This document shows, piece after piece, positions 25,577 to 63,075 of a stretch of 64,000 bases of DNA. Within the stretch, counting starts at the first letter, position 1; every line of letters starts with the position of its first letter. Position numbers and translations under genes: made by a program. Below the pieces are notes generated by a model. That model searched no databases. It was given only the letters and a program-made list of their open reading frames with translations, and was not told where the DNA came from. The DNA is taken from NCBI GenBank assembly GCA_021513695.1, contig CP084166.1, positions 2,400,001 to 2,464,000 on the forward strand. The letters are read 5' to 3'. This stretch comes from Candidatus Heimdallarchaeum aukensis. GTDB lineage: Archaea; Asgardarchaeota; Heimdallarchaeia; Heimdallarchaeales; Heimdallarchaeaceae.

Positions 25577-25817
25577 ACAATAGTGACTAGATAGCTTTCT
25601 GATTCATTGATTTTTTCTGGATATGTTAGTAATAAGGCTCAAGAGACTAAAACGCAGATATTTCTGAATTCATATTTGATTAAACTTTCGTTCTATTTAT
25701 TAAAAAAATAACAAATTCTTGTGTAAATTAACCATGTGTATATATAATTCAACGTTCTTATCTGAATCTAAAAGTTTAAGAGTTTCTAAACTAGATATTT
25801 TCGTAGACAAAGTGAAA

Positions 25818-26420
25818 ATGATGAAAACGCTTTTCGATAAATCAAAATTCGATATGAAAGTAGAAGAAATTATGACAAAAGGGGTAATTTCTGTTGCCCC
25901 AAAAGCAAGTGCAGAAGTTTGTGCCAAACTAATGATCGATAATAAGATTGGCTCTGTCGTAGTAATAGACAGTAGTAAAAAAATTCTAGGTATCATTACC
26001 AAAGAAAATCTAATTAAACATGTTATAGCACAAAATGCAAGTCCAGAAGAAGTAAAAGCTTTTGAGATAATGTCTGCGCCAGTAATTACAGCTAGAGAGA
26101 CAATAACTATTTCAGAAGCTATGCGAAAAATGTTTAAAGAGAATATCCGCCACTTGGTGATTACTGATTCACAAGGATTTGTAATAGGAATATGTACAGA
26201 TACAGATCTGTTTAAAGTAGTTCCCACTTTAATTCTGATAGAAAAAGAATATTTGCAACTGATGAGAAATGAAGAGGAAGATACTAAAAATGAAGAATTA
26301 GTATCAGGATATTGTGATGACTGTGGAGAATATTCAGATTCACTAATGGAAATTGATGGCCAATTTAAGTGCCCAAGATGTGTCCCAGAAGATATAAACA
26401 TTATGCCACCTGAAATATAG
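25818..26420 (+). CDS. CBS-domain pair protein with C-terminal zinc ribbon
   Basis: Two CBS-like units (VEEIMTKGVISV...IGSVVVID..KILGIITKENL and AFEIMSAPVITA...IRHLVITDSQGFVIGICTDTDL), then CDDCGEYSDSLMEIDGQFKCPRC. ATG at 25818 preferred over the track start at 25719. Confidence 0.75.
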   Translation: MMKTLFDKSKFDMKVEEIMTKGVISVAPKASAEVCAKLMIDNKIGSVVVIDSSKKILGIITKENLIKHVIAQNASPEEVKAFEIMSAPVITARETITISEAMRKMFKENIRHLVITDSQGFVIGICTDTDLFKVVPTLILIEKEYLQLMRNEEEDTKNEELVSGYCDDCGEYSDSLMEIDGQFKCPRCVPEDINIMPPEI

Positions 26421-39167: not shown

Positions 39168-41786
39168 ATGAAACTAAAGAAATTTATGGTATTTTTAGTT
39201 ATTCTATCTATTCTAACGATAAATTTTACTCTTCTACAAGGTATGGCTGACACACCACAAAATATTCTGATTTTATCGGAAGAAATAGATGATTCTCTAA
39301 AGGATAGATTTCAACTTGATCCTTCCTTTTCTGTAACTATACAATCACAACTCACAGGTTCACTTGATGGTTATTCTGGAATAATCTTGTATGATTATGC
39401 TCCTAAAAGTTCAGAATATAACCAAATTTTATCTTTCTCTGGGGGTATTGCTAGTTTCATTGGTGCTTCATTATTGTCTAACAGCTCAATTTTACTTGGT
39501 CTAAATATGATATCGGACTCTGTTGGAGAATTAATTAATACAACAGCTCTTCCAGAACCAATAGATCAAAAATCAGAACATGAACTCATAGCAAATATTA
39601 GATGGAACTCTGTTGTTCAAATTAGAAACTTTACGAGCTTACCACTGGCAAACACAATTCTAATTGAAACTTCTTCAGAAAGTAAAACACCAAACATTCC
39701 ACTTGTTAGTACTAATAATGATAATTCACGTATAGCTATTAATTTTCTTCCCAGTGAGCAGGCAAATAGCGAATTTATCCAATGGCCCTATTTTAATTAC
39801 TTCTTAAACATAATACTTAATCTAATTACGTCACAAAAACCACAATCTTACGCAGATTGGCCTTATTCTCCTGTTCCACATAAGTCAGCAACGATAGGTT
39901 TGGGTTTAATGGTATTACTCACTTCAGCTATCACTATTGCTGTGTATATTTTTGTAAAACGCTATTCCTCTAGGAACCCTATCAAAGAAGAAGACTTAGA
40001 AGAAATAAGTAAGGAAATAAAAGAAGAAAAAGACTGGGAAGATATTGGAATGCATAGACAGTTGGCAGGTTTCTTTGTCCAACTGTTTATTGGTTTGCTT
40101 ATAATTCTCCCCAATGTTGTTATGTCTTCTCTAATTTTTCCTCTCTACATTCTTCCAAGTCCTCAAGCAGCAGGATTTTATGATTTTACAATTCGGTTTT
40201 TTGAAGTATTATGGTTGATGTTTGATATTGGTACCTCTGTTGTACTCGTGAAATTCTTTAGTCAACATAGAGTAAAAAACCCACAACAAGCAGTAAAATA
40301 TATTCAAATTTTTATTTATTATCAGATGATTAGTGGGGTACTTCAACTCTTCTTAGTTTCCTTTATTGGTTCAATTTTCTTTCCTCGTTCCTTCTTAGCT
40401 CATTTAAGCTGGCTCTTTGTGACCCATGCTTTCTTCCAGTGGCCTGCGTTTTTTGTTGTTTTCATGCTAATTTTCCAAGCAATGAATCGACATGACATGT
40501 ATCAGATTCTCAACATTCTCCTATATGGAGTATTCAATATCACAATTCAGTATGGTGTTATAGTTATTTTTAGAGTTACTCTAGGAAAAAATCCTATTTT
40601 TGGTGATGGTTTAGCTGGAGCAATTGGATACAGTGTTGGAAATTATGTGATACAAGTAGTTACATTTCTTTTAGGACTATGGATGTTTAAACGCCAAAAA
40701 TTCTCTCTCAAAAGTATATTCAGAATCGATTTTTCTATGGCCGAGATTAAGGAGTCTCTAAGTTTCGGTTTTAAGTGGATGATAGGAAATATTCTTCCTC
40801 CATTAGGTTGGTTTGCGCAAATGTTTCTCCTTTCAACTTTTCTCCCTAACTATACTGAACAACAAGGTTATTTCTCTCTTGCATGGAATTTTGCATTAAT
40901 AGTCATGATAGCTGGGTTGTTTGCACAATCAATTTTACCTGGAGTTTCAGAATCATATCATGGAAAGAAAAAAGTACTAACAAGATACTACACACTAAAC
41001 TCTTTGAAGTGGGGAGCATACTTTGACTGGTTCTTTGTTTCTGCGCTATTAGCTATTGGTCCTCGTTTCATCATAGGAGGAGCGGGAGAAGAATGGGCTT
41101 CTGCAGCAATTATTATACGGTGGATACTCTTATTCCATTTCTTTGGATATTTATCTTGGATTGGAGATTGGATGTTTGCAGGTTCTGATCGTCCTGGTTG
41201 GGCTGCAATAAGTTGGGTAATAGAACAAGTAATAAGAACAGGATTACTTGTTGCGTTCATTCCAGCATATAAATTCTTTACAATTCACTTCAATTCTCCT
41301 ATGATTGGAGTACTTTTTGCATATATTCCCGCTCTAATTATAAAGAATGCATTTATGTGGTGGGGTATACGTAGAGACGACTTTTTCAAGTTCAGATGGA
41401 AAGACCTCTGGTATCAAGGTGTAGTAACTCCTTTACTTTCTGCTCTAGCATTGTTTAGTGTACTTGAACTACTATTTACAGTAATTTGGAAAGGAGAGAT
41501 AATTACATCAGTCGTAATTCTGTTAATTGGAATAATACCAGGACTTTACCTTTTTGCGTTCTTTATGGGACTATTCGGTGGATTTGATGATAACACATTA
41601 ACAGAACTCAAGAGAAGTACAGATATGGTTAAAGGAGTAGGATTTATGGCTAGACCCCTTTACAAACTTACAGAATGGGGGACGAAGATTTCTCCACTTC
41701 ATAACAGATTCCCTATCTCTATATACAATGAGGCCATTAAAGAAGCAGAGGAATTAACAAAAGAAAAAGCTAAACTCGTAATATAG
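39168..41786 (+). CDS. Large polytopic membrane protein with N-terminal extracytoplasmic domain (possibly MOP/Wzx flippase-like core)
   Basis: 872 aa. Signal/anchor MKLKKFMVFLVILSILTINFTLL, a ~230-aa soluble domain, then at least 12 hydrophobic helices. The functional call is weak. Confidence 0.6.
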   Translation: MKLKKFMVFLVILSILTINFTLLQGMADTPQNILILSEEIDDSLKDRFQLDPSFSVTIQSQLTGSLDGYSGIILYDYAPKSSEYNQILSFSGGIASFIGASLLSNSSILLGLNMISDSVGELINTTALPEPIDQKSEHELIANIRWNSVVQIRNFTSLPLANTILIETSSESKTPNIPLVSTNNDNSRIAINFLPSEQANSEFIQWPYFNYFLNIILNLITSQKPQSYADWPYSPVPHKSATIGLGLMVLLTSAITIAVYIFVKRYSSRNPIKEEDLEEISKEIKEEKDWEDIGMHRQLAGFFVQLFIGLLIILPNVVMSSLIFPLYILPSPQAAGFYDFTIRFFEVLWLMFDIGTSVVLVKFFSQHRVKNPQQAVKYIQIFIYYQMISGVLQLFLVSFIGSIFFPRSFLAHLSWLFVTHAFFQWPAFFVVFMLIFQAMNRHDMYQILNILLYGVFNITIQYGVIVIFRVTLGKNPIFGDGLAGAIGYSVGNYVIQVVTFLLGLWMFKRQKFSLKSIFRIDFSMAEIKESLSFGFKWMIGNILPPLGWFAQMFLLSTFLPNYTEQQGYFSLAWNFALIVMIAGLFAQSILPGVSESYHGKKKVLTRYYTLNSLKWGAYFDWFFVSALLAIGPRFIIGGAGEEWASAAIIIRWILLFHFFGYLSWIGDWMFAGSDRPGWAAISWVIEQVIRTGLLVAFIPAYKFFTIHFNSPMIGVLFAYIPALIIKNAFMWWGIRRDDFFKFRWKDLWYQGVVTPLLSALALFSVLELLFTVIWKGEIITSVVILLIGIIPGLYLFAFFMGLFGGFDDNTLTELKRSTDMVKGVGFMARPLYKLTEWGTKISPLHNRFPISIYNEAIKEAEELTKEKAKLVI

Positions 41787-54782: not shown

Positions 54783-55601
54783 TTATTTTTCCAATTGCGA
54801 TGTCAAGATTAGCAAATCTTTTTGGAATTTTTGGTATTTGTTATCACTTTTTTCTGAATCAGAGATAAGAGAAAGGATTTTTTGAAGATTCATTCTATGT
54901 ATCTCCTTCTCTTCAGGAGTAAACTTAGAGAAATCTACTTTTCCTGATTTCAACCCTTGTAAGTAATCCAAGTTTCTTTTTATTAAACTCCTGTCTTTTT
55001 GTATTTCATCGTGACCTGTGATTAACCACCTATAGTCAAAAGAAAGATATTTTTCTAATGTGTCGACATAAGATTCAAAATCTAAATTGTTAATGTAAGG
55101 AAAGGGATATTCAACATTATCTCCAACAAACAGAGCTTTATCCTGAATGTCAAAACAAGAAGCCGATTCTGCTGTATGTCCTGGACTACTAAAAAAGACT
55201 ATTTGATCCTCAGGGAAAAAAAGTTTTGAATGAAACAGAAGGTTGGGTTTAACTAATGAGACTTTTCCCTTCTGATGTTTTCCATATTTATTCAATTCTT
55301 TTTCTGCTTTTGTTCTGAACACTTTCTCAAAATGTTCTTGGGCTATAATTATTTGTTCTGTAAAAAAGCAGTTTCCCCAAATATGGTCATAATCTGCGTG
55401 AGAATTAAAAATAATAACCTTTCTAGGAAAAACCTTTTTTTGTTCTTTCAGATGTTTAAAGACACTTTCCATTGATTCTGGACCCAAAAACGTATCACAA
55501 ATGAATGTATGTTTCTTTCCAATAATCACGAAAACATTTGTTCTATATGGTTCTGAAAAGGTGAATAAAATCCCCCTTTTTCCTATCTCTTGAATTTCCA
55601 T
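54783..55601 (-). CDS. MBL-fold metallo-hydrolase
   Basis: IIFNSHADYDHIWGN (HxHxDH-type), later SPGHT and TGHD metal-ligand contexts. Confidence 0.7.
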   Translation of the reverse strand: MEIQEIGKRGILFTFSEPYRTNVFVIIGKKHTFICDTFLGPESMESVFKHLKEQKKVFPRKVIIFNSHADYDHIWGNCFFTEQIIIAQEHFEKVFRTKAEKELNKYGKHQKGKVSLVKPNLLFHSKLFFPEDQIVFFSSPGHTAESASCFDIQDKALFVGDNVEYPFPYINNLDFESYVDTLEKYLSFDYRWLITGHDEIQKDRSLIKRNLDYLQGLKSGKVDFSKFTPEEKEIHRMNLQKILSLISDSEKSDNKYQKFQKDLLILTSQLEK

Positions 55602-55759
55602 TATTATAACACAAATTAATGTTCTCTTTAATTTTTCTTTTTAGTAATAAAAAAATTGTTCATTACTAAGAAATGCTAAAAAGCAATTTATAGTTTCAAT
55701 TATTTTATGATTTTTGGCTTTATTGACGTTTTTATGTCAGTTTTATAAGAGTTGTTCGA

Positions 55760-55773
55760 GTTTTTGCAAAAAC
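55760..55773. promoter_or_regulatory. Perfect 14-bp palindrome GTTTTTGCAAAAAC upstream of the 98-aa ORF (candidate operator)
   Basis: Read directly. Lies 9 nt upstream of a TATA-like TTATAA (55782-55787), which is 30 nt before the ATG at 55817. Confidence 0.3.
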
Positions 55774-55816
55774 GAAAATAGTTATAAGATGGTCGGTGTC
55801 ATCTCCTATGACGTAA

Positions 55817-56113
55817 ATGATAGAACGAATGCGCTTTTGTGCACAAGCATTAATATCTGCTTTAGAGAATAATCAAACTCCTACAACTTGTCTAGATGAA
55901 TTTATTAGTTCGGTAAGAGATGCTTGGATAAAATTTGAACAGGGTCAAATAACAGTAGCAATAAATCAACTTCCAAGACCGATGTACATGTTTGTTATAG
56001 AAGAATTACCAAAAGTGATTAATGACCCTTCACAAAAAGAAAAAATAATTAAAGAATTAAAACTTTTTTTGAATACAATTGATTTAATTATTCAACCTAA
56101 AGAAATTAATTAA
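55817..56113 (+). CDS. Hypothetical small helical protein
   Basis: 98-aa ORF with an ATG start and TATA-like box at the expected distance. No recognisable family. Confidence 0.45.
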   Translation: MIERMRFCAQALISALENNQTPTTCLDEFISSVRDAWIKFEQGQITVAINQLPRPMYMFVIEELPKVINDPSQKEKIIKELKLFLNTIDLIIQPKEIN

Positions 56114-56146
56114 GACAGTTTAAACACTTTCAATAATTTTTTTGAA

Positions 56147-56190
56147 TCTATTCAAAATCTATTCAAAATCTATTCAAAATCTATTCAAAA
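56147..56190. repeat. Tandem repeat: four perfect head-to-tail copies of the 11-bp unit TCTATTCAAAA
   Basis: Read directly: 56147-56157, 56158-56168, 56169-56179 and 56180-56190. Located between the convergent 3' ends of the 98-aa ORF and the 44-aa zinc-ribbon gene. Confidence 0.95.
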
Positions 56191-56280
56191 TAAGCTTAAA
56201 AAATAAAAAAAATGATTGTTAGTTCCTTAAAACAATGTTTTAAGTTATTCTTATTCTATAATAAAAAAGATGATTTGTTA

Positions 56281-56415
56281 TTAATAACGATTATATCTTC
56301 TATTATTTTGTCTATGTTTTCTATAACAATCTTGACAATAGACGGGTCTTTCACCATCTGGTTTGAAAGGTACCTGTGCATTTTTTCCACAGTCATCACA
56401 AACGATGTCAAACAT
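56281..56415 (-). CDS. 44-aa CxxC-x17-CxxC zinc-ribbon protein (missing from the ORF track because it is under 60 aa)
   Basis: Hand translation of the minus strand: ATG 56415-56413 ... TAA 56283-56281 gives MFDIVCDDCGKNAQVPFKPDGERPVYCQDCYRKHRQNNRRYNRY. The core C-x2-C-G-x5-VPFKP-x4-RPVYC-x2-C matches the known CxxC-x17-CxxC small-protein family. An in-frame TGA lies 13 codons upstream of the ATG. Confidence 0.75.
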   Translation of the reverse strand: MFDIVCDDCGKNAQVPFKPDGERPVYCQDCYRKHRQNNRRYNRY

Positions 56416-56863
56416 TTCACGATTGTCTATGTAATTTTCTCTACTCAATATATTTCACCGATTATTGATTGGTTATACTTGAAAGTTCATTAGGATCCAA
56501 AAAATAGTTGAGACTAATTTAATGATTCTAAAAGTGAACTACAAATATACTAAGTTAATGAAATATATGTAGTATTTAAATTCTAGGTTTGAACTCAAGA
56601 ATTATTTATTTGATTTAAACTCAAAGTAAAAAGTCCTTCTAAACTTTCAAAGTTACTCTTATTGTTATTCTTAATGCTTTATTTTTCTTTTTTATCTGTT
56701 TTCTAGTCATATAATTTTTTTATCAAGACACATTTGTATTTGAAAAAAGAGAACTTTTTTTACATTAGTAGGAGAACTAACATTTTATTGATAAATTCTT
56801 GGATTATATATTAGCAAAAAATAATTATAAAAAAAACAGATTTTTCTACAATTTTCTTTAAAT

Positions 56864-56876
56864 TTCAAAATCTATT
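56864..56876. promoter_or_regulatory. Solitary copy (TTCAAAATCTATT) of the 56147-56190 repeat motif in the promoter region of the Rad50-like operon
   Basis: 13/13 identity to the phase-shifted repeat unit. Immediately follows TATA-like TTTAAAT (56857-56863) and ends 21 nt before the TTG at 56897. Confidence 0.4.
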
Positions 56877-56896
56877 TAAGTGAAAATGCATTCTTT

Positions 56897-57166
56897 TTGT
56901 TAGTACAATTGGTGAGTAAAGTGGATAGTTCTGATTCTTCTATTATAGTTGAAAAAATTAAAAAAGAAATAAATAGTTATGAATCTTCGAGGGCGAAAGG
57001 AAAAAAACTTATTTTTGAGAAATCTACTCCTGAACTTCTAAATAGTTTAGTACAGTTTCTAAATGATTTTTTTGATAAGTATTCTAAAACAGAAAAAGTA
57101 GAAGAAATTAACGAATTTGTCGATCATCTATATTCTACATTAAGGTGGAAGAAAAATGATTACTAG
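56897..57166 (+). CDS. Small helical protein, first gene of the Rad50-like/PIN operon
   Basis: 89-aa ORF. No ATG is available (TTG 56897; alternatives TTG 56909, GTG 56912, GTG 56921). Its last 11 nt overlap the ATG of the next gene. Confidence 0.45.
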   Translation: MLVQLVSKVDSSDSSIIVEKIKKEINSYESSRAKGKKLIFEKSTPELLNSLVQFLNDFFDKYSKTEKVEEINEFVDHLYSTLRWKKNDY

Positions 57167-58982
57167 TGTAAGCGTGAAAAATTGGAAAAAGTTTGATCAA
57201 CAAAAAGAATGGACTTTTGATAAAGGAATCCAACTTATTTATGGTCCTAACACAAGCGGTAAATCTTCTCTCCTCGAAGCTATCTATTTTGCTTTTTTTG
57301 GAGTAAATGAGAAGGTAGATGGAAACCCTACTTATAATTCGAATGAATCTGCAATTGTAACTGTTGATTTCATCTCTGATACTGGAGATAAGTATAGAAT
57401 AATCAGGAGTTATAAGAAAATTAAAAGAAAAGAAGAATCTTTTACACTTTACAAATTGGTTGATGGAAAAGAGGAGTTTTTCTCTGAAAACCCTCAAGAT
57501 GCAATTAAACTCTACGGAAAATTTGAAGATATTTTTACTCACATAATTTTTCTAAAAGAAGGAGAAATATACAGAACGCTATCGCGGATGAAAAGTAACT
57601 TAGATGAAGAACTATCCTATTTGTTGAACTTACAACGATTTGACGTTCTTCGTGAGAAATTGAGAGAAACAAGACTTAAGGTAATTAAGAAACAGAAAGA
57701 AAGTGTAAAGAAAGATCCAGCGTATTTGTCTGAAAAAGAGATAAACGAGTTTAAAGAGAAGTTGCATAGTCTAAATAATGAAAAAGAGAAGTTGGAAGGA
57801 AAGAAAAAGAAAGTAATCCACGATAAGAAACTTGCTGAGAAAAGATTTTCATTAAATAAAAAGTTGAAAGAGCTTGATTCTGAAAAACAAAAATATGGTG
57901 AAACAATAAAAAATATTAGAACCAAGTATGAAAATAAAGAATCTTTGATTGATTTTTTGAACAATGAAATTGCGGTATTAGAAAATAAAAATGAACAGTT
58001 AGATATAAAATGTTCTAAACTTAGCAGCGAAAAAGCTGAAAAAGAAGGAGAAAAAAGGAGACTAAATAAATTAATTAATGAAATTAACTCATTCAAATCT
58101 TCTGGAACTACCACATGTCCTACTTGTTATCAAAAAGTCGACCCTATGATTCTTCAAGAAGCTATTGAGGGTTTCAGCAAAAAAGTTAAAGATTTAGAAA
58201 ATGCATTGTTTCAACTTAATTCTTCCATAAATGAAATTAATGAAGAAAAGAGAATAATCTCTCAAAAGATAAGGGAAATTAAAGAAGACTTATTTGATCT
58301 TGAAAATGCTAAAAAAGGAATCAGTTTCATTCAACAGGAGATAAATGAGATAAACAATTATCTAAACTCACTTCCCCACACTGAAAATATTGAAAATTAT
58401 TCAATGCAGATAGAAGATCTAGAAGACGAAATAAGTAACATTAATGTGGAAATAAGAACAGTAGAGAAAAAGTTGAGTTCAAGTAAACAAGAAGGGATAA
58501 TGATTGACGAGTTAGAATTTCAAGAAAAGTTTATTGAATTAGTTGAAAATAAACTGAGTGAATATAAAGATGAGTTGCTTGAAAGAAAATTAAATGAAAT
58601 TAAAGGAGTAATAAAAGAAAAATGGGCAGAAATATGGGATAAAGAAATTTGGTCCATAGAATTTGATGACAATTTAGTTCCTACAATTAGCTTTAAGTAT
58701 AAAGGAACAACTATTCAACAAAATTTGCGCAGTTTTTCAGCGAGTGAAAAAATACTTTTAAGTGTCATTTTACGCGCTGCTTTAATTGATAAACTTTTAA
58801 GCGTAAAAACAATGATTCTAGATGACCCCTCAATCTTTTTAGACCAAGAAAGTGTTAAAATTGCTGCTCGATTCTATCGTGAACTTATAGATAATAAACA
58901 TGTGGATCAGATAATTATGACCACATTTGATGAATCTTTCAAAGAATTATTAAAACCTGAAAAAGTGATAAACCTTGAGTAA
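57156..58982 (+). CDS. Mini-Rad50/SbcC-like ABC ATPase with long coiled coil and central CxxC zinc hook
   Basis: N-terminus VKNWKKF...IQLIYGPNTSGKSSLLEAIYFAFFG (Walker A at aa 30-37). About 400 aa of K/E/L/N heptad-rich sequence. CPTC at aa 321-324 of 608 (nt 58116-58127). C-terminal FSASEK (signature-like), TMILDDPSIFLD (Walker B/D-loop) and IIMTTFD (H-loop position without His). Confidence 0.75.
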   Translation: MITSVSVKNWKKFDQQKEWTFDKGIQLIYGPNTSGKSSLLEAIYFAFFGVNEKVDGNPTYNSNESAIVTVDFISDTGDKYRIIRSYKKIKRKEESFTLYKLVDGKEEFFSENPQDAIKLYGKFEDIFTHIIFLKEGEIYRTLSRMKSNLDEELSYLLNLQRFDVLREKLRETRLKVIKKQKESVKKDPAYLSEKEINEFKEKLHSLNNEKEKLEGKKKKVIHDKKLAEKRFSLNKKLKELDSEKQKYGETIKNIRTKYENKESLIDFLNNEIAVLENKNEQLDIKCSKLSSEKAEKEGEKRRLNKLINEINSFKSSGTTTCPTCYQKVDPMILQEAIEGFSKKVKDLENALFQLNSSINEINEEKRIISQKIREIKEDLFDLENAKKGISFIQQEINEINNYLNSLPHTENIENYSMQIEDLEDEISNINVEIRTVEKKLSSSKQEGIMIDELEFQEKFIELVENKLSEYKDELLERKLNEIKGVIKEKWAEIWDKEIWSIEFDDNLVPTISFKYKGTTIQQNLRSFSASEKILLSVILRAALIDKLLSVKTMILDDPSIFLDQESVKIAARFYRELIDNKHVDQIIMTTFDESFKELLKPEKVINLE

Positions 58983-60579
58983 AACTAAATTTTTATTCGT
59001 TTTTGACACTTCTTTTTTTTGGTCTCTTTTAAATGTTAATCGGCATCAATTGATCCAAGATATTAAAGAAGTATTTGACTATGTTCCAAATATTCAATAT
59101 ATTGCTCCCAAAGTGATTTTAAAGGAACTATCTGGAAAATATAAAGATAAATGTCCTTTTCTAGAGCGGCATATTCAATTTACAGACATTGAAATTACAG
59201 AGGAGGAATTAAAAGAACTTAAAAAATTGAATAGTTCCTTGCCTAATCATGCATTTGAGAGAAAGGAAAAAGGTGATTACATAATAATTAACACTGCAAA
59301 AAAGTATGATGATTCAGAAGCAGTCAAATTTGTTGTAAGTAATGACGAGGGAATTCATCTGTTTCTTGATCAAGCTATCCCAGAAGAGAAAATAAAACCA
59401 ATCTGGGTAGCTAGATTTTTATCCTTTTTAGCCAAACAATCCTTAACTAAAAACCAAAAACGAAGGTTTACTCAAGCATCTGAAATGCTAGAAGAATATA
59501 TTGATACTTATCGTATAAAATCAAAGAGAGGAGAAACACCCTTTTACGATATAGAAAAAATACTAATGTCAGCTAAATTTTTACCTGCTGAAGAACAAAT
59601 TAATAGATTGCAAGAAGCTCTAGAAAATCAGATAATTACAGGAGAAAAAAGTGATACACTTCCTTCTTTTATTAATCAAATAGGCTCAAAACTGCATCAA
59701 ATCTTTTCCTATATAGATTTAGGTGAAACAAATGTTATTGAATCTCAACTCGAATCTGTAGAAGTAATAATTATGAATTTAAGTTTAGAGCAACGAGAGA
59801 CAGTTTACAAAATTATCAGTTTTTACCTGATTACAATTTTAAATCGGTTAGCTTCAATTTATGACCAAAATGGAGCTTTTTCTGGAATTGTTTCTGCATT
59901 AGAAAGAGCAAAGTTTTACTTAAAATATGTTGATGAATATGAAGACAAAAGTCAACTTTATGCAATTTTAAGTTGGATACACCTATTAAATAATTCAAAC
60001 GATTTATCACGGTATTATTTTTCAAAGGTAACAGATAAAAACTTTGAACTAGCAAAGAAACTAACAGCGTTGTTGGAACTGTATGATACTCCATTGGCAA
60101 AGATCGATACAAGATTGTATGAACTAGTTCCATCAGAAACTTGGAAAAACCTTAACGAAACACTAGCTATCTGTCCCAATAGACTACTACGAGAGAAAAT
60201 AGCCTATATTGTGAATACCTTTGAAATAAAACCCTCATTTGTTTTTGATGCAAGGCATTTTAATTTAAAAAATATGGAAATAAAAGAAAACTCTTTGCTT
60301 TCATTTCTAAAAGAGCAGTTTAGAATATTGAATATAATAAAAAAAGAAAGTTCAGTAGTAATTGAGTGTCATGACAGTAAAATAGGTCAAATTGAACTTC
60401 GTTTGCCTATCATCAGGACTATACTTAAAGTGTCACCTGGTGATTTAATAAGCTTTAGAGGGGGAACAATAGCAAAAATAAAGAAACCAAGTCCTGGAAA
60501 AAAACATTCTGCAACAATATATTTCAGTAAATTAGAAGAAGATGATTGTATTATTTCAAAAGATAGTAAACTGATTTAG
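58975..60579 (+). CDS. PIN-domain protein with large uncharacterised C-terminal region, third gene of the operon
   Basis: TTG start overlaps the ATPase stop (TTGAGTAA). The first ~130 aa carry the four PIN acidic positions in canonical contexts: FVFD11TSFF, VILKE51LSG, KGD101YIIINTAKK, FVVSND124EGI. The remaining ~400 aa are helical, then beta-rich, with no recognisable family. Confidence 0.6.
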   Translation: MSKTKFLFVFDTSFFWSLLNVNRHQLIQDIKEVFDYVPNIQYIAPKVILKELSGKYKDKCPFLERHIQFTDIEITEEELKELKKLNSSLPNHAFERKEKGDYIIINTAKKYDDSEAVKFVVSNDEGIHLFLDQAIPEEKIKPIWVARFLSFLAKQSLTKNQKRRFTQASEMLEEYIDTYRIKSKRGETPFYDIEKILMSAKFLPAEEQINRLQEALENQIITGEKSDTLPSFINQIGSKLHQIFSYIDLGETNVIESQLESVEVIIMNLSLEQRETVYKIISFYLITILNRLASIYDQNGAFSGIVSALERAKFYLKYVDEYEDKSQLYAILSWIHLLNNSNDLSRYYFSKVTDKNFELAKKLTALLELYDTPLAKIDTRLYELVPSETWKNLNETLAICPNRLLREKIAYIVNTFEIKPSFVFDARHFNLKNMEIKENSLLSFLKEQFRILNIIKKESSVVIECHDSKIGQIELRLPIIRTILKVSPGDLISFRGGTIAKIKKPSPGKKHSATIYFSKLEEDDCIISKDSKLI

Positions 60580-60732
60580 CATTGTTTCTATTCATTCACT
60601 ATCGAATTATTTTACTTTGGAAAGAATAAGATGTAATGCAATAAATTATGCAGACTTAAAAAATAACATGCGTGTTTGCAATCATTTAAAATATACTTAT
60701 ATACTCTCTTTAAAAGAACACATGATGCATAT

Positions 60733-63075
60733 ATGCGGATAAAAGTTAGGAATATATTATTAATCTTTTTAATAGTTGTTGGAAGTATATACGTTTCCAA
60801 CATAGCAAATTCTAATATTGAAGGAACAAATATTATAATAACGGAAGTATTATATGATGCTCCTAATTCTGATTCGACTGAAGAGTGGATAGAATTATAC
60901 AACCCTACAGATCAAATTATTTCTATAGACAATTGGATAATTGAAGACAATTATGACTCTTTTACTCTTACAGGAACTTTAGATGCCTATGGATATTTTG
61001 TTATTGCTAAACAATCCTCTGCGTTCAATAGTTTATACGGCTTTAACCCTGATTTGGATGGGATGACGTTAGCTTTGAGTAACTCTGGAGATCAAGTAAG
61101 ACTCAGTGATAATACAGGAGCTGAAGTAGATTTTGTGGCTTGGGAAAATTATGTAAGCGGATGGTCTGTTTCTGCAGTAGATGCTACAATCAGAAGAATA
61201 ACAGCAACAGATACTGATTCTGGTTCTGATTGGGAAAATAGTGGCAGTTTGGGTGATCCTGGAACAGGAAGTTATAGTTCGGGGGGAGAAGATACCACCC
61301 CTCCTACAGTCACTATTACAAGTCCAATAGATGGAGCTACAGTCTATGGGACTGTTCAAATAACTGTTGATGCCACGGATGCAAATGGTATCTCAAGTTA
61401 TGAGATCTACATCGATAATGTTCTAAGAGCTACTTCGTCTTCTTATTCTTGGGATACAACGGTAGAAGAAGATGGAAGCCACACGATCGTTGCTAAAGCC
61501 CAAGACCCATCTGGAAATTGGGGTGAAGATACTATTACCGTTAACGTCGACAACACGAACCCTCCTCCTTCTCCTCCAAGTGATTATGCTAAAATAATGA
61601 CATATAATATAGAACAGAGTGGACTTGATCCAGATTGGAAACAAGTAGTAAAAGAAGAAAATCCCGATATTGTTATTTTCGTAGAAACAGGAACTTGGGA
61701 TGATAACAATAACGAGCTTCTAAATCAGTATGTTAATGAGTTTAATAGTTATTTTGTCGATGAAGCACCCTATGTAGGATATACAGCTCAGGATATAACT
61801 TATTCTACAAGTGGAGAAGCAATAATGAGCAGATATCCCATAATAGAGAATACTCAGATACCAATTGTATCATTAGATGATGGTTCCAGTTATGATGTTA
61901 CCCATGATTTTATGTCGTGGAAGGTAAATATCAGTGGAACACCAGTATATATTATTGGTGCTCATCTTAAGGCAAGCTCAGGCTCTGATAATGAATGGAG
62001 AAGAGAACGTGAACAAGAAGGAATCATTAATTATATGGATAGTTTGGGAGAAGTACCTATAATCTACATGGGTGATCTTAACTCTTTTTCTCCAGAAGAT
62101 ACAGGAGACTTAGCACCTTTAGGAGATTTAGGTTATGGTCCAATGACAATGACTATTTGGCCTGATGATCCAACTTATGGACAATATTCTTCGCAAAATC
62201 ATCTTTTCACTGATGTTTTCAGAACCCTCAATCCTACAGAACCAGGATACACCTATGGACACCAAGATCCTCAATACAAATCAAGAATCGATTATATAGT
62301 AGTGAATGATCACTTGGATGACTTCTTAATCAATTCAACCGTGGGAGATACACCTACAGCTGATACTGGTTCTGATCATTACTGTGTGGATATGTTCATT
62401 GATGTTGCAGCTCTTAATAATGGTGCTCCACCTGATACAACTCCACCTGCAAAGGTTACAGATCTAACTGCTACGCCCATTAGTTCCTCTCAAATTGATT
62501 TATCTTGGACCGCAAACACTGAAGGAGATCTAAGCTACTATAAAATTTATAGAGATGGAGTATTTATTGCTCAAACAACTACAACAGATTACAGTGATAC
62601 AGGATTAGAACCTTCTACAACTTATACATATGAGGTTTCTGCAGTAGATACAAGCAATAACGAAGGAGTGAAATCTGACCCTGTTTCTGCTACAACGGAT
62701 TCAGTAACAACAGAAACAATACATGTAGATAGTATTGTAACAGGACTGTATGTTGGTAGAAAAGATCCTGTTTTTACTGAAACAAATTCCTTCCAGCCTA
62801 AAGATATAGTGATAATACGTGTAAAAATAGTTGATTCCAATGGTATAGCTGTTGAAGGAGTCTCTGTAACTATAACAATTACTGACTCTGAAGGAGATGT
62901 AGTAACACTAACATCAACAACTGACAGCCAAGGTATCGCAGAGTTTTCCTACAGATTAAGTCCAAGAGCTCCTCTAGGTACATATACAATAAATGTAACT
63001 GATGTAAGCTTAAGTGGATATACTTATGATCCTACAGCAAATGTAGTTTCAAGTGTTGATTTTACAGTTAGTTAA
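60733..63075 (+). CDS. Secreted multidomain nuclease/phosphatase: lamin-tail domain, Ig-like, endonuclease/exonuclease/phosphatase (EEP), fibronectin-III and Ig-like domains (ExeM/NucH-like)
   Basis: Signal anchor MRIKVRNILLIFLIVVGSIYVSNIANS. LTD pattern IIITEVLYDAPNSDSTEEWIELYNPT...ISIDNWIIED...LSNSGDQVRLSDNTGAEVDFVAW. EEP motifs IMTYNIEQSG, FVETG, MGDLNS, RIDYIVVN, GSDHYCV. FN3 PPAKVTDLTATPISSSQIDLSW...YKIYRDG...TYTYEVSAVD. ATG at 60733 preferred over the track start at 60676. Confidence 0.8.
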   Translation: MRIKVRNILLIFLIVVGSIYVSNIANSNIEGTNIIITEVLYDAPNSDSTEEWIELYNPTDQIISIDNWIIEDNYDSFTLTGTLDAYGYFVIAKQSSAFNSLYGFNPDLDGMTLALSNSGDQVRLSDNTGAEVDFVAWENYVSGWSVSAVDATIRRITATDTDSGSDWENSGSLGDPGTGSYSSGGEDTTPPTVTITSPIDGATVYGTVQITVDATDANGISSYEIYIDNVLRATSSSYSWDTTVEEDGSHTIVAKAQDPSGNWGEDTITVNVDNTNPPPSPPSDYAKIMTYNIEQSGLDPDWKQVVKEENPDIVIFVETGTWDDNNNELLNQYVNEFNSYFVDEAPYVGYTAQDITYSTSGEAIMSRYPIIENTQIPIVSLDDGSSYDVTHDFMSWKVNISGTPVYIIGAHLKASSGSDNEWRREREQEGIINYMDSLGEVPIIYMGDLNSFSPEDTGDLAPLGDLGYGPMTMTIWPDDPTYGQYSSQNHLFTDVFRTLNPTEPGYTYGHQDPQYKSRIDYIVVNDHLDDFLINSTVGDTPTADTGSDHYCVDMFIDVAALNNGAPPDTTPPAKVTDLTATPISSSQIDLSWTANTEGDLSYYKIYRDGVFIAQTTTTDYSDTGLEPSTTYTYEVSAVDTSNNEGVKSDPVSATTDSVTTETIHVDSIVTGLYVGRKDPVFTETNSFQPKDIVIIRVKIVDSNGIAVEGVSVTITITDSEGDVVTLTSTTDSQGIAEFSYRLSPRAPLGTYTINVTDVSLSGYTYDPTANVVSSVDFTVS

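Follow-up and report, generated by a model that had tools for sequence, protein, structure and literature searches.

In Lamassu defense systems, the Rad50-like protein LmuB forms a dimer that senses DNA ends and frees a sequestered effector. Its Walker B motif is degenerate and its ATP hydrolysis is very slow. LmuB of short Lamassu has about 600 residues, the CxxC hook is optional, and the Walker B motif of long Lamassu has the form hhhhDD. The gene for LmuC, a protein derived from the C terminus of SbcD, is located just upstream of the LmuB gene and was lost in type I. The effector repertoire includes Cap4, Mrr, PDDEXK, HNH, Sir2, protease, hydrolase, FMO, lipase, TIR, and other domains. A second group of related ATPases, the SMC-related proteins specific to archaea (ASRP; coalescin ClsN and Sph1/2), is patchily distributed and possibly derived from extrachromosomal elements, and no conserved gene neighbors have been reported for it. 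Here, we describe a locus with features of both groups in a 64,000-nucleotide stretch of Candidatus Heimdallarchaeum aukensis (contig CP084166.1, positions 2,400,001 to 2,464,000; referred to as the window and numbered from its first letter), where three overlapping genes encode a small protein, a shortened Rad50-like ATPase, and a protein with a PIN nuclease domain. Our favored reading, to which we give slightly less than an even chance, is that the three genes encode a three-component sensor-effector conflict (defense) complex that resembles Lamassu and was built from an archaeal Rad50 scaffold.

All three open reading frames (ORFs) are on the plus strand, at 56897-57166 (89 aa), 57156-58982 (608 aa), and 58975-60579 (534 aa). 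A first-pass annotation, made from the letters alone, had described them as an operon with overlapping junctions, and both junctions were recovered. The ATPase start codon ATG at 57156 begins within the small ORF, so that the two genes share its last 11 nt up to the TAG at 57164-57166, and the TTG of the PIN gene at 58975 gives an 8-nt overlap with the ATPase gene, which ends with TAA at 58980-58982. The length of 89 aa assigned to the small protein had to be corrected. It corresponds to the longest ORF, which begins at TTG 56897. Homologs are 74-82 aa long, and in the alignment their starts fall at GTG 56921, so that the small subunit gene is probably 56921-57166 with a product of 81 aa. In every related locus the small ORF either ends right at the ATPase start or runs into it. 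Searches with the small protein gave no match in Pfam, NCBIfam, PADLOC, or PDB, and none to Mre11, and detected no relatives outside the module. It was considered as a kleisin or as what is left of the Rad50-binding domain of Mre11, and both ideas were rejected, as profile searches of PDB and Pfam were empty.

The 608-aa ATPase (57156-58982) matches the Pfam families AAA_29, AAA_23, and SMC_N, which are N-terminal P-loop families of SMC and Rad50 proteins. It consists of an N-terminal head half, an antiparallel coiled coil of ~340 aa, and a C-terminal head half. The ATPase motifs named in the first-pass annotation were located at the residues given there. Walker A, GPNTSGKS, is intact (57243-57266; aa 30-37). 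The signature motif of ABC ATPases reads FSASEK instead of LSGGE (58734-58751; aa 527-532), with LSGSEK or LSGAEK in relatives. The zinc-hook motif CPTC (58116-58127; aa 321-324) is situated at mid-length, at the apex of the coiled coil, inside a conserved CPTCYQKVDP. Residues C321, P322, T323, and C324 are invariant in the family alignment, the CxxC position is aa 313-321 across all modules compared, and the family profile has weak matches (E ~0.003) to two zinc-hook structures of Rad50, 1l8d and 6zff. The postulated heptad-rich coiled coil was supported by a lysine plus glutamate content of 32% in residues 161-500 and a hydrophobic lag-7 autocorrelation of 0.30.

Alignment to Rad50 structures revealed replacements at three hydrolysis residues. 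In the Q-loop region IFLKEGEI (57546-57569; aa 131-138), Glu135 takes the place of the Rad50 Gln, the family motif FLkEGEi being aligned with yIkQGEi of Rad50. Walker B, TMILDDP (58809-58829; aa 552-558), is aligned with ilDEP, which puts Asp557 at the position of the catalytic Glu. The absence of a His at the H-loop position, also proposed earlier, was borne out by the alignment of QIIMTTFD (58908-58931) with SHd and THh of Rad50; a Phe is found here and a Tyr in relatives. Walker B DD and an H-loop F or Y are present in all modules compared. The Q-loop Glu is kept in all six PIN-linked modules compared (for L008, by visual inspection of the translated sequence) and in the relative P0013 from Candidatus Poribacteria, and the same six modules and P0013 carry the complete triple substitution (Gln to Glu in the Q-loop, Glu to Asp in Walker B, and His to Phe or Tyr in the H-loop).

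A profile built from five members of the ATPase family was searched against PDB. The best solved relatives were archaeal Rad50 heads, from M. jannaschii (1e-36) and P. furiosus (3e-28). The locus also resembles archaeal Rad50-Mre11 in the zinc hook at the coiled-coil apex and in a partner gene directly upstream. In contrast to archaeal Rad50, the ATPase has 608 rather than ~880-900 aa, all three hydrolysis residues are replaced, and the nuclease partner is a PIN protein. The earlier statement that no Mre11, NurA, or HerA gene is adjacent was confirmed, the neighbors being genes for a DEAD helicase, a metallo-beta-lactamase, a zinc finger, and an LTD/EEP (endonuclease/exonuclease/phosphatase) protein; no Mre11 was found in the related loci examined either. 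The scores with Rad50 equivalog models were 53-91 bits, far short of the cut-offs (700-1087). Canonical Rad50 is ruled out by these scores, by length and motifs, and by the lack of an adjacent Mre11 gene, all of which agree with the shortened hook-bearing derivative that had been proposed. The NCBIfam ASRP model NF045487 aligned over the full length with 101 bits at a cut-off of 300. Archaeal origin, a size of ~600 aa, a zinc hook, and patchiness are shared with ASRP, which are general features and insufficient for membership, and the hook CPTCYQKVDP is similar to CPKCHQKLDP of an ASRP-like protein. Relatives of the window ATPase reached 73-125 bits, whereas the ASRP-like control P0060 reached 261 bits and has kept DE in Walker B and a His in the H-loop. 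Furthermore, the module ATPase has two fixed partner genes, unlike ASRP. Membership of ASRP/ClsN/Sph was disfavored because the ATPase is ~200 bits under the cut-off and the control retains the canonical catalytic residues, which weakens an ASRP identity. Judged by these sequence comparisons, the ATPase is a distinct shortened Rad50 derivative, neither canonical Rad50 nor a curated ASRP member.

The N-terminal part of the 534-aa protein had been assigned to the PIN fold from four acidic residues. In an alignment of 16 homologs, D101 and D124 never vary, every complete sequence has D11, and most have E or D at position 51; E98 and E125 show almost no variation, and G126, R180, and R185 are conserved. 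The PIN nuclease domain with these six acidic residues covers 58975-59439 (~aa 1-155) and is followed by a conserved helical extension at 59440-59589 (~aa 156-205), in which R180 and R185 (YRxxxxR) are invariant. A model of the N-terminal 205 residues calculated with the 16 homologs had a predicted local distance difference test (pLDDT) score of 91, and a Foldseek search with it supported the PIN assignment. The window protein itself has no family match and no Pfam PIN match. Several homologs do match Pfam PIN families, namely PIN_4 in three (best 2.6e-6), PIN_5 in two, PIN_12 in two, and PIN in one. Structural neighbors of the domain are VapC, Dis3, Nob1, and protein-only RNase P nucleases and not FEN-type DNA nucleases, which suggests RNA or single-stranded nucleic acid as the substrate of the modeled domain. 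Compared with PIN RNases that carry helical-repeat or OB domains as partners (VapC, Dis3/Rrp44 PIN, Nob1, SMG6, and protein-only RNase P), the window protein shows no family-level sequence match and differs by its unique conserved YRxxxxR extension and its linkage to a Rad50-like ATPase.

The remainder of the 534-aa protein was assessed in a full-length AlphaFold2 (AF2) model, which was based on three sequences only and is of moderate confidence. The middle region (59590-60222; ~aa 206-416; pLDDT ~70-88) was predicted to be all-helical and TPR-like, with weak Foldseek matches to TTC5/Strap, CSN1, and other TPR/PCI proteins (E 5e-3 or weaker). The C-terminal region (60274-60564; ~aa 434-530; pLDDT ~57-84) was modeled as a beta domain of 6-7 strands with an OB-like fold and gave local Foldseek matches to RPA32, RPA14, Stn1, and the TTC5 OB domain (E 0.06-0.4, probability 0.98-1.0). 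The protein may therefore be described as PIN, TPR-like, and OB-like domains in succession, the last two assignments being tentative. The PIN core and the YRxxxxR extension travel together in the fusion proteins P0024 and P0027. In P0027 (729 aa, L093:9001-11190) and P0024 (590 aa, L011:310-2082), this pair is fused C-terminally to an uncharacterized region of ~380-490 aa.

The order small gene, ATPase gene, PIN gene was found in seven independent loci (the window, L001, L003, L006, L007, L008, and L092), so that the trio is syntenic across deep divergence, as had been asked of related genomes in the first-pass annotation. ATPase identity to the window protein is 83% in L001 from Ca. Heimdallarchaeum endolithica, 43% in L003 and L006, 28% in L092, 25% in L007, and 23% in L008. 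Flanking genes vary between the loci except in the closest pair, the window and H. endolithica. Pairwise identities of the ATPases and the PIN proteins are correlated with r = 0.98 over 15 pairs, which come from six modules and are non-independent; the correlation points to inheritance of the two proteins as a unit. On the basis of the overlapping start and stop codons, the recurrent order, the varying flanks, and this co-divergence, we propose that the three genes form one functional unit. The PIN protein family is small: a HMMER search with a three-sequence profile retrieved only 19 relatives among 1.84 billion cluster representatives. All named members are from Asgard archaea (Heimdall lineages, Ca. 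Freyarchaeum deiterrae, and Sigynarchaeota). The Asgard background suspected earlier was further corroborated by proteins from Candidatus Heimdallarchaeaceae metagenome-assembled genomes (MAGs) that are 99-100% identical to the 534-aa and 608-aa products. Scans of JGI metagenomes yielded one locus with gene sizes as in L092, probably the L092 module itself, and no clearly new locus.

In H. endolithica, the small gene and the PIN gene each show a 1-nt deletion at a homopolymer run (L001:9880-9946 and L001:11860-11870), and the same deletions are found in L002. In one case T7 is shortened to T6, and in the other a G is lost after T8; the small protein is truncated, and the strand bearing D11 is cut off from the PIN protein. 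Either errors in the assembly or the decay of a system that is dispensable or toxic could account for these deletions, and the two assemblies that show them may share source data.

Defense-like neighbors occur in one of the seven modules, L092, and next to two related PIN proteins that have no ATPase. The flanks of L092 contain a PLD protein, a HepT/MNT toxin-antitoxin pair, and TnsA-like and TIR genes. In Ca. Freyarchaeum deiterrae (CP147778.1), a 581-aa PIN homolog without ATPase (L009:8001-9746) adjoins a HEPN/nucleotidyltransferase (HEPN/MNT) pair and a DISARM-like cluster composed of a DNA methylase, a 1112-aa helicase, DUF1998/MZB, and PLD genes. The neighbors of the P0027 fusion are UvrD-PDDEXK, AAA, RQC, VWA, VapB, and D12-methylase genes. 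One further member of the PIN family without ATPase stands alone. Together with the patchy rarity of the PIN family, the contexts of L092, L009, and P0027 lend support to a putative defense function, which is our best reading of these sequences.

The module was then compared with known defense systems. The best match of the ATPase in the defense library was the PADLOC LmuB model PDLC03859, with 111 bits and 1.8e-32 over the full length, and E values for the LmuB model reach 1e-35 across the ATPase family. Common to Lamassu and the module are a ~600-aa SMC/Rad50-like ATPase with a short coiled coil and a CxxC hook, a deviant Walker B (here DD) that implies weak hydrolysis, a small gene directly 5' of the ATPase gene, analogous in position to LmuC, and, as a separate protein, a multi-domain effector that is enzymatic in its N-terminal domain and noncatalytic in its C-terminal part. 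The shared ATPase size, disabled hydrolysis site, small-gene position, and multi-domain effector are the reasons for proposing a Lamassu-like logic. Unlike in Lamassu, the Q-loop and the H-loop are substituted in addition, archaeal Rad50 is a closer relative of the ATPase than solved LmuB, and the module is restricted to Asgard archaea among named members. A PIN effector is absent from the published effector lists examined, which do not include the ABC-3C classification of Krishnan et al. (2020). The first-pass annotation had not recognized the composition as a described system, and no description of it was found in the literature covered, which excludes the ABC-ATPase classification of the same authors. 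A keyword search of two surveys on defense in archaea and in Asgard archaea returned no mention of Lamassu, SMC, or Rad50.

Control of a nuclease by an ABC or Rad50-like ATPase is also a feature of RloC, of AriA and AriB in PARIS, and of PtuA and PtuB in Septu. The module ATPase gave weak N-terminal matches to the PtuA and AriA models, limited to the P-loop region. RloC has a hook-bearing coiled coil. Its effector is an anticodon nuclease fused to the ATPase, AriB is a Toprim protein, and PtuB an HNH protein; none is a PIN nuclease. To our knowledge, RloC, PARIS, and Septu have no third small subunit.

If the three genes do encode a sensor-effector defense complex, it might operate in the following way. 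Two mini-Rad50 chains would dimerize via the CPTC zinc hook, and their heads would bind ATP via the intact Walker A and signature motifs. Since the Q-loop Gln, the Walker B Glu, and the H-loop His are all replaced, the heads would act as a slow ATP-dependent switch and not as a motor. The small protein, whose gene is placed like that of Mre11 before Rad50 or of LmuC before LmuB, might bridge the heads or the coiled coils and help to dock the effector. The PIN-TPR-OB protein would be held inactive on the complex until the ATPase clamps abnormal DNA, such as virus or plasmid ends or replication intermediates, upon which the effector would be released or activated. Its PIN domain would then cut single-stranded nucleic acid, most likely RNA, and invader replication would be blocked or growth arrested. 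The deletions in H. endolithica, if not assembly errors, fit a dispensable or toxic accessory system of this kind.

With respect to its origin, a further proposal, about which we are a little more doubtful than about the defense function as such, is that this Asgard immune system arose independently of Lamassu. A Rad50-type end sensor would have been shortened, its hydrolysis residues disabled, and Mre11 lost, and a PIN-TPR-OB ribonuclease and a small adaptor would have been gained. A two-gene unit from Candidatus Poribacteria bears on this proposal. Species-representative genomes were scanned with the hook and Q-loop motifs, giving 145 confirmed matches, from which 80 loci were kept. Two of them are from Heimdall archaea and the rest from Candidatus Poribacteria or bacterial MAGs. 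The Poribacteria unit (L014-L091, e.g. L014:4790-6851) is composed of an ORF of ~68 aa, always directly upstream, and a hook-bearing mini-Rad50 of ~620 aa. These ATPases align full length with the Asgard proteins at 21-25% identity, better than with any Rad50. They share the hook, and alignment of P0013 showed a Q-loop Glu, Walker B Asp-Asp, and an H-loop Tyr. Homology between the Asgard and Poribacteria small proteins was rejected after negative hmmsearch and hhalign runs. Upstream neighbors of the pair are aminotransferase and O-methyltransferase genes. Clustering of the downstream genes gave 20 unrelated groups, most of them ordinary and none with a PIN protein, and a conserved third partner was rejected. 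The stability of the pair indicates that the core of ATPase and small protein can persist without a nuclease. Under an independent origin, the pair in Poribacteria would reflect either the ancestral state, before arming, or another use to which the scaffold was put. As far as we could tell, the two-gene unit is undescribed.

A number of results weigh against the defense reading or against its kinship with Lamassu. The window copy and its H. endolithica counterpart are located among housekeeping genes (in the window GH31, OMP decarboxylase, Band-7, DEAD helicase, and metallo-beta-lactamase), with conserved upstream synteny and no defense island. The small-ORF and ATPase pair is present in at least 77 Poribacteria species without a conserved nuclease partner, a pattern more typical of a housekeeping function. 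IMG/VR viral contigs contained no match to the PIN protein and only generic matches to the ATPase. In family-wide scans the ATPase is by sequence as near to the Rad50 and ASRP models as to the LmuB models, and no structure named LmuB or DdmC was among the top 60 PDB profile matches. The gene order is small gene, ATPase, effector in the module compared with LmuA, LmuC, LmuB in Lamassu. PADLOC gave no LmuA match for the 534-aa protein and no LmuC match for the small protein, the only match of these two proteins being PDC-M07B at 4e-4. A Foldseek search of PDB with the moderate-confidence 534-aa model retrieved TPR and OB proteins and no LmuA. Without an LmuA or LmuC model match or an LmuA fold match, membership in Lamassu was rejected.

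Part of this evidence would fit a housekeeping complex for genome maintenance, which we consider unlikely and yet the most serious competitor of the defense reading. Here, the mini-Rad50 and the small subunit would form a scaffold for chromosome organization or DNA repair, comparable to Rad50-Mre11 or to archaeal ASRP/ClsN, and the PIN-TPR-OB protein would take the place of Mre11 as a structure-specific nuclease that processes single-stranded DNA, flaps, or RNA-DNA hybrids where there are lesions or replication intermediates. Archaeal Rad50 heads as the closest solved relatives and the full-length alignment of the ASRP model would be in line with such a complex, as would the occurrence of the Poribacteria pair at a syntenic housekeeping locus in all those species and the synteny of the window locus with H. 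endolithica amid housekeeping flanks; OB-like and helical-repeat domains would suit single-stranded DNA binding. Against it stand the extreme rarity of the PIN-linked module, patchy even in Asgard archaea, contexts that vary and in one module include defense or mobile-element neighbors, the replacement of all three hydrolysis residues, and the H. endolithica orthologs, which appear frameshifted.

An improbable alternative to the defense complex is a selfish addiction cassette similar to toxin-antitoxin systems, possibly the remnant of a mobile element, in which a PIN toxin would be neutralized by the ATPase, the small protein, or both, and which would be maintained by post-segregational killing without any sensing. 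PIN is the classic fold of VapC toxins, the distribution is patchy, and toxin-antitoxin pairs, TnsA-like, and TnpB genes are located near some copies. However, an ATPase of 608 aa that bears a hook and retains Walker A and the signature motif intact is much more elaborate than an antitoxin. The PIN protein has 534 aa compared with ~130 aa for a VapC toxin, and the small gene precedes the ATPase gene and not the PIN gene, unlike in VapBC. In addition, the upstream flank of the window is stably syntenic, no copy was found on IMG/VR contigs, and the plasmid collection, searched with the ATPase, contained no relative; a viral or plasmid origin was rejected on the latter two results. A divergent bacterial-type Lamassu gained by horizontal transfer, with LmuB and a new LmuA and LmuC, is the least probable explanation of all, as the full-length LmuB match at the top of the PADLOC results, the hhhhDD Walker B as in long Lamassu, and the three components with a small gene directly upstream of the ATPase are opposed by the missing LmuA and LmuC model matches, an effector gene placed after the ATPase gene, archaeal Rad50 at 1e-36 with no solved LmuB in the top 60 PDB matches, the Asgard-only named PIN proteins, and an effector whose C-terminal part looks like TPR and OB domains and thus differs from the C-terminal domains described for LmuA.

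If the defense reading is correct, a compact immune complex of sensor and effector would have been made out of Rad50/SbcC repair machinery in archaea as well as in bacteria, and a PIN nuclease would be added to the effectors of SMC-like sensors. The logic of a Rad50- or SMC-like sensor with a nuclease effector is known; the PIN effector and the composition of the Asgard trio would be new, as neither was found described in the literature covered. Should the complex serve housekeeping, it would be a Rad50-like complex with a PIN nuclease instead of Mre11, which we have not seen described. The triple substitution, present from Asgard archaea to Poribacteria, offers a chance to test whether a Rad50-type clamp can signal by ATP binding alone.

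The ~780 bp upstream of the module had been regarded as gene-poor DNA with iteron-like repeats, and both descriptions had to be revised. A treble-clef zinc-finger gene (Pfam zf_Tbcl_2, E = 1e-20) lies inside this stretch on the minus strand at 56281-56448 and occupies the same position in H. endolithica. The repeats consist of one 11-bp tandem of 4.3 copies at 56145-56191, ~700 bp upstream, that is absent from the orthologous H. endolithica locus. It is a perfect repeat of AATCTATTCAA between a convergent 98-aa ORF and the zinc-finger gene. The stretch was rejected as a part of the system, because the repeat is not conserved and the zinc-finger gene lies in between. An Rfam search of 55500-61000 gave no RNA family.

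The next gene of interest in the window, downstream of the module (60676-63075, plus strand), codes for 799 aa; its product combines LTD, Big_7, endonuclease/exonuclease/phosphatase, fn3, and MG2 domains. In the equivalent region of H. endolithica (L001:13539-16157), only an MG2 fragment of 116 aa is present, together with small ORFs and a gene for TnpB (Cas12f1-like_TNB). The replacement of the 799-aa gene indicates that the downstream flank has been rearranged. Elsewhere in the window, an 872-aa ORF at 39168-41786 (plus strand) had no Pfam match at E<=0.001. Two ORFs of 233 aa each, at 25700-26401 (minus strand) and 25719-26420 (plus strand), overlap almost completely in antisense, and at most one of them is likely to be real.

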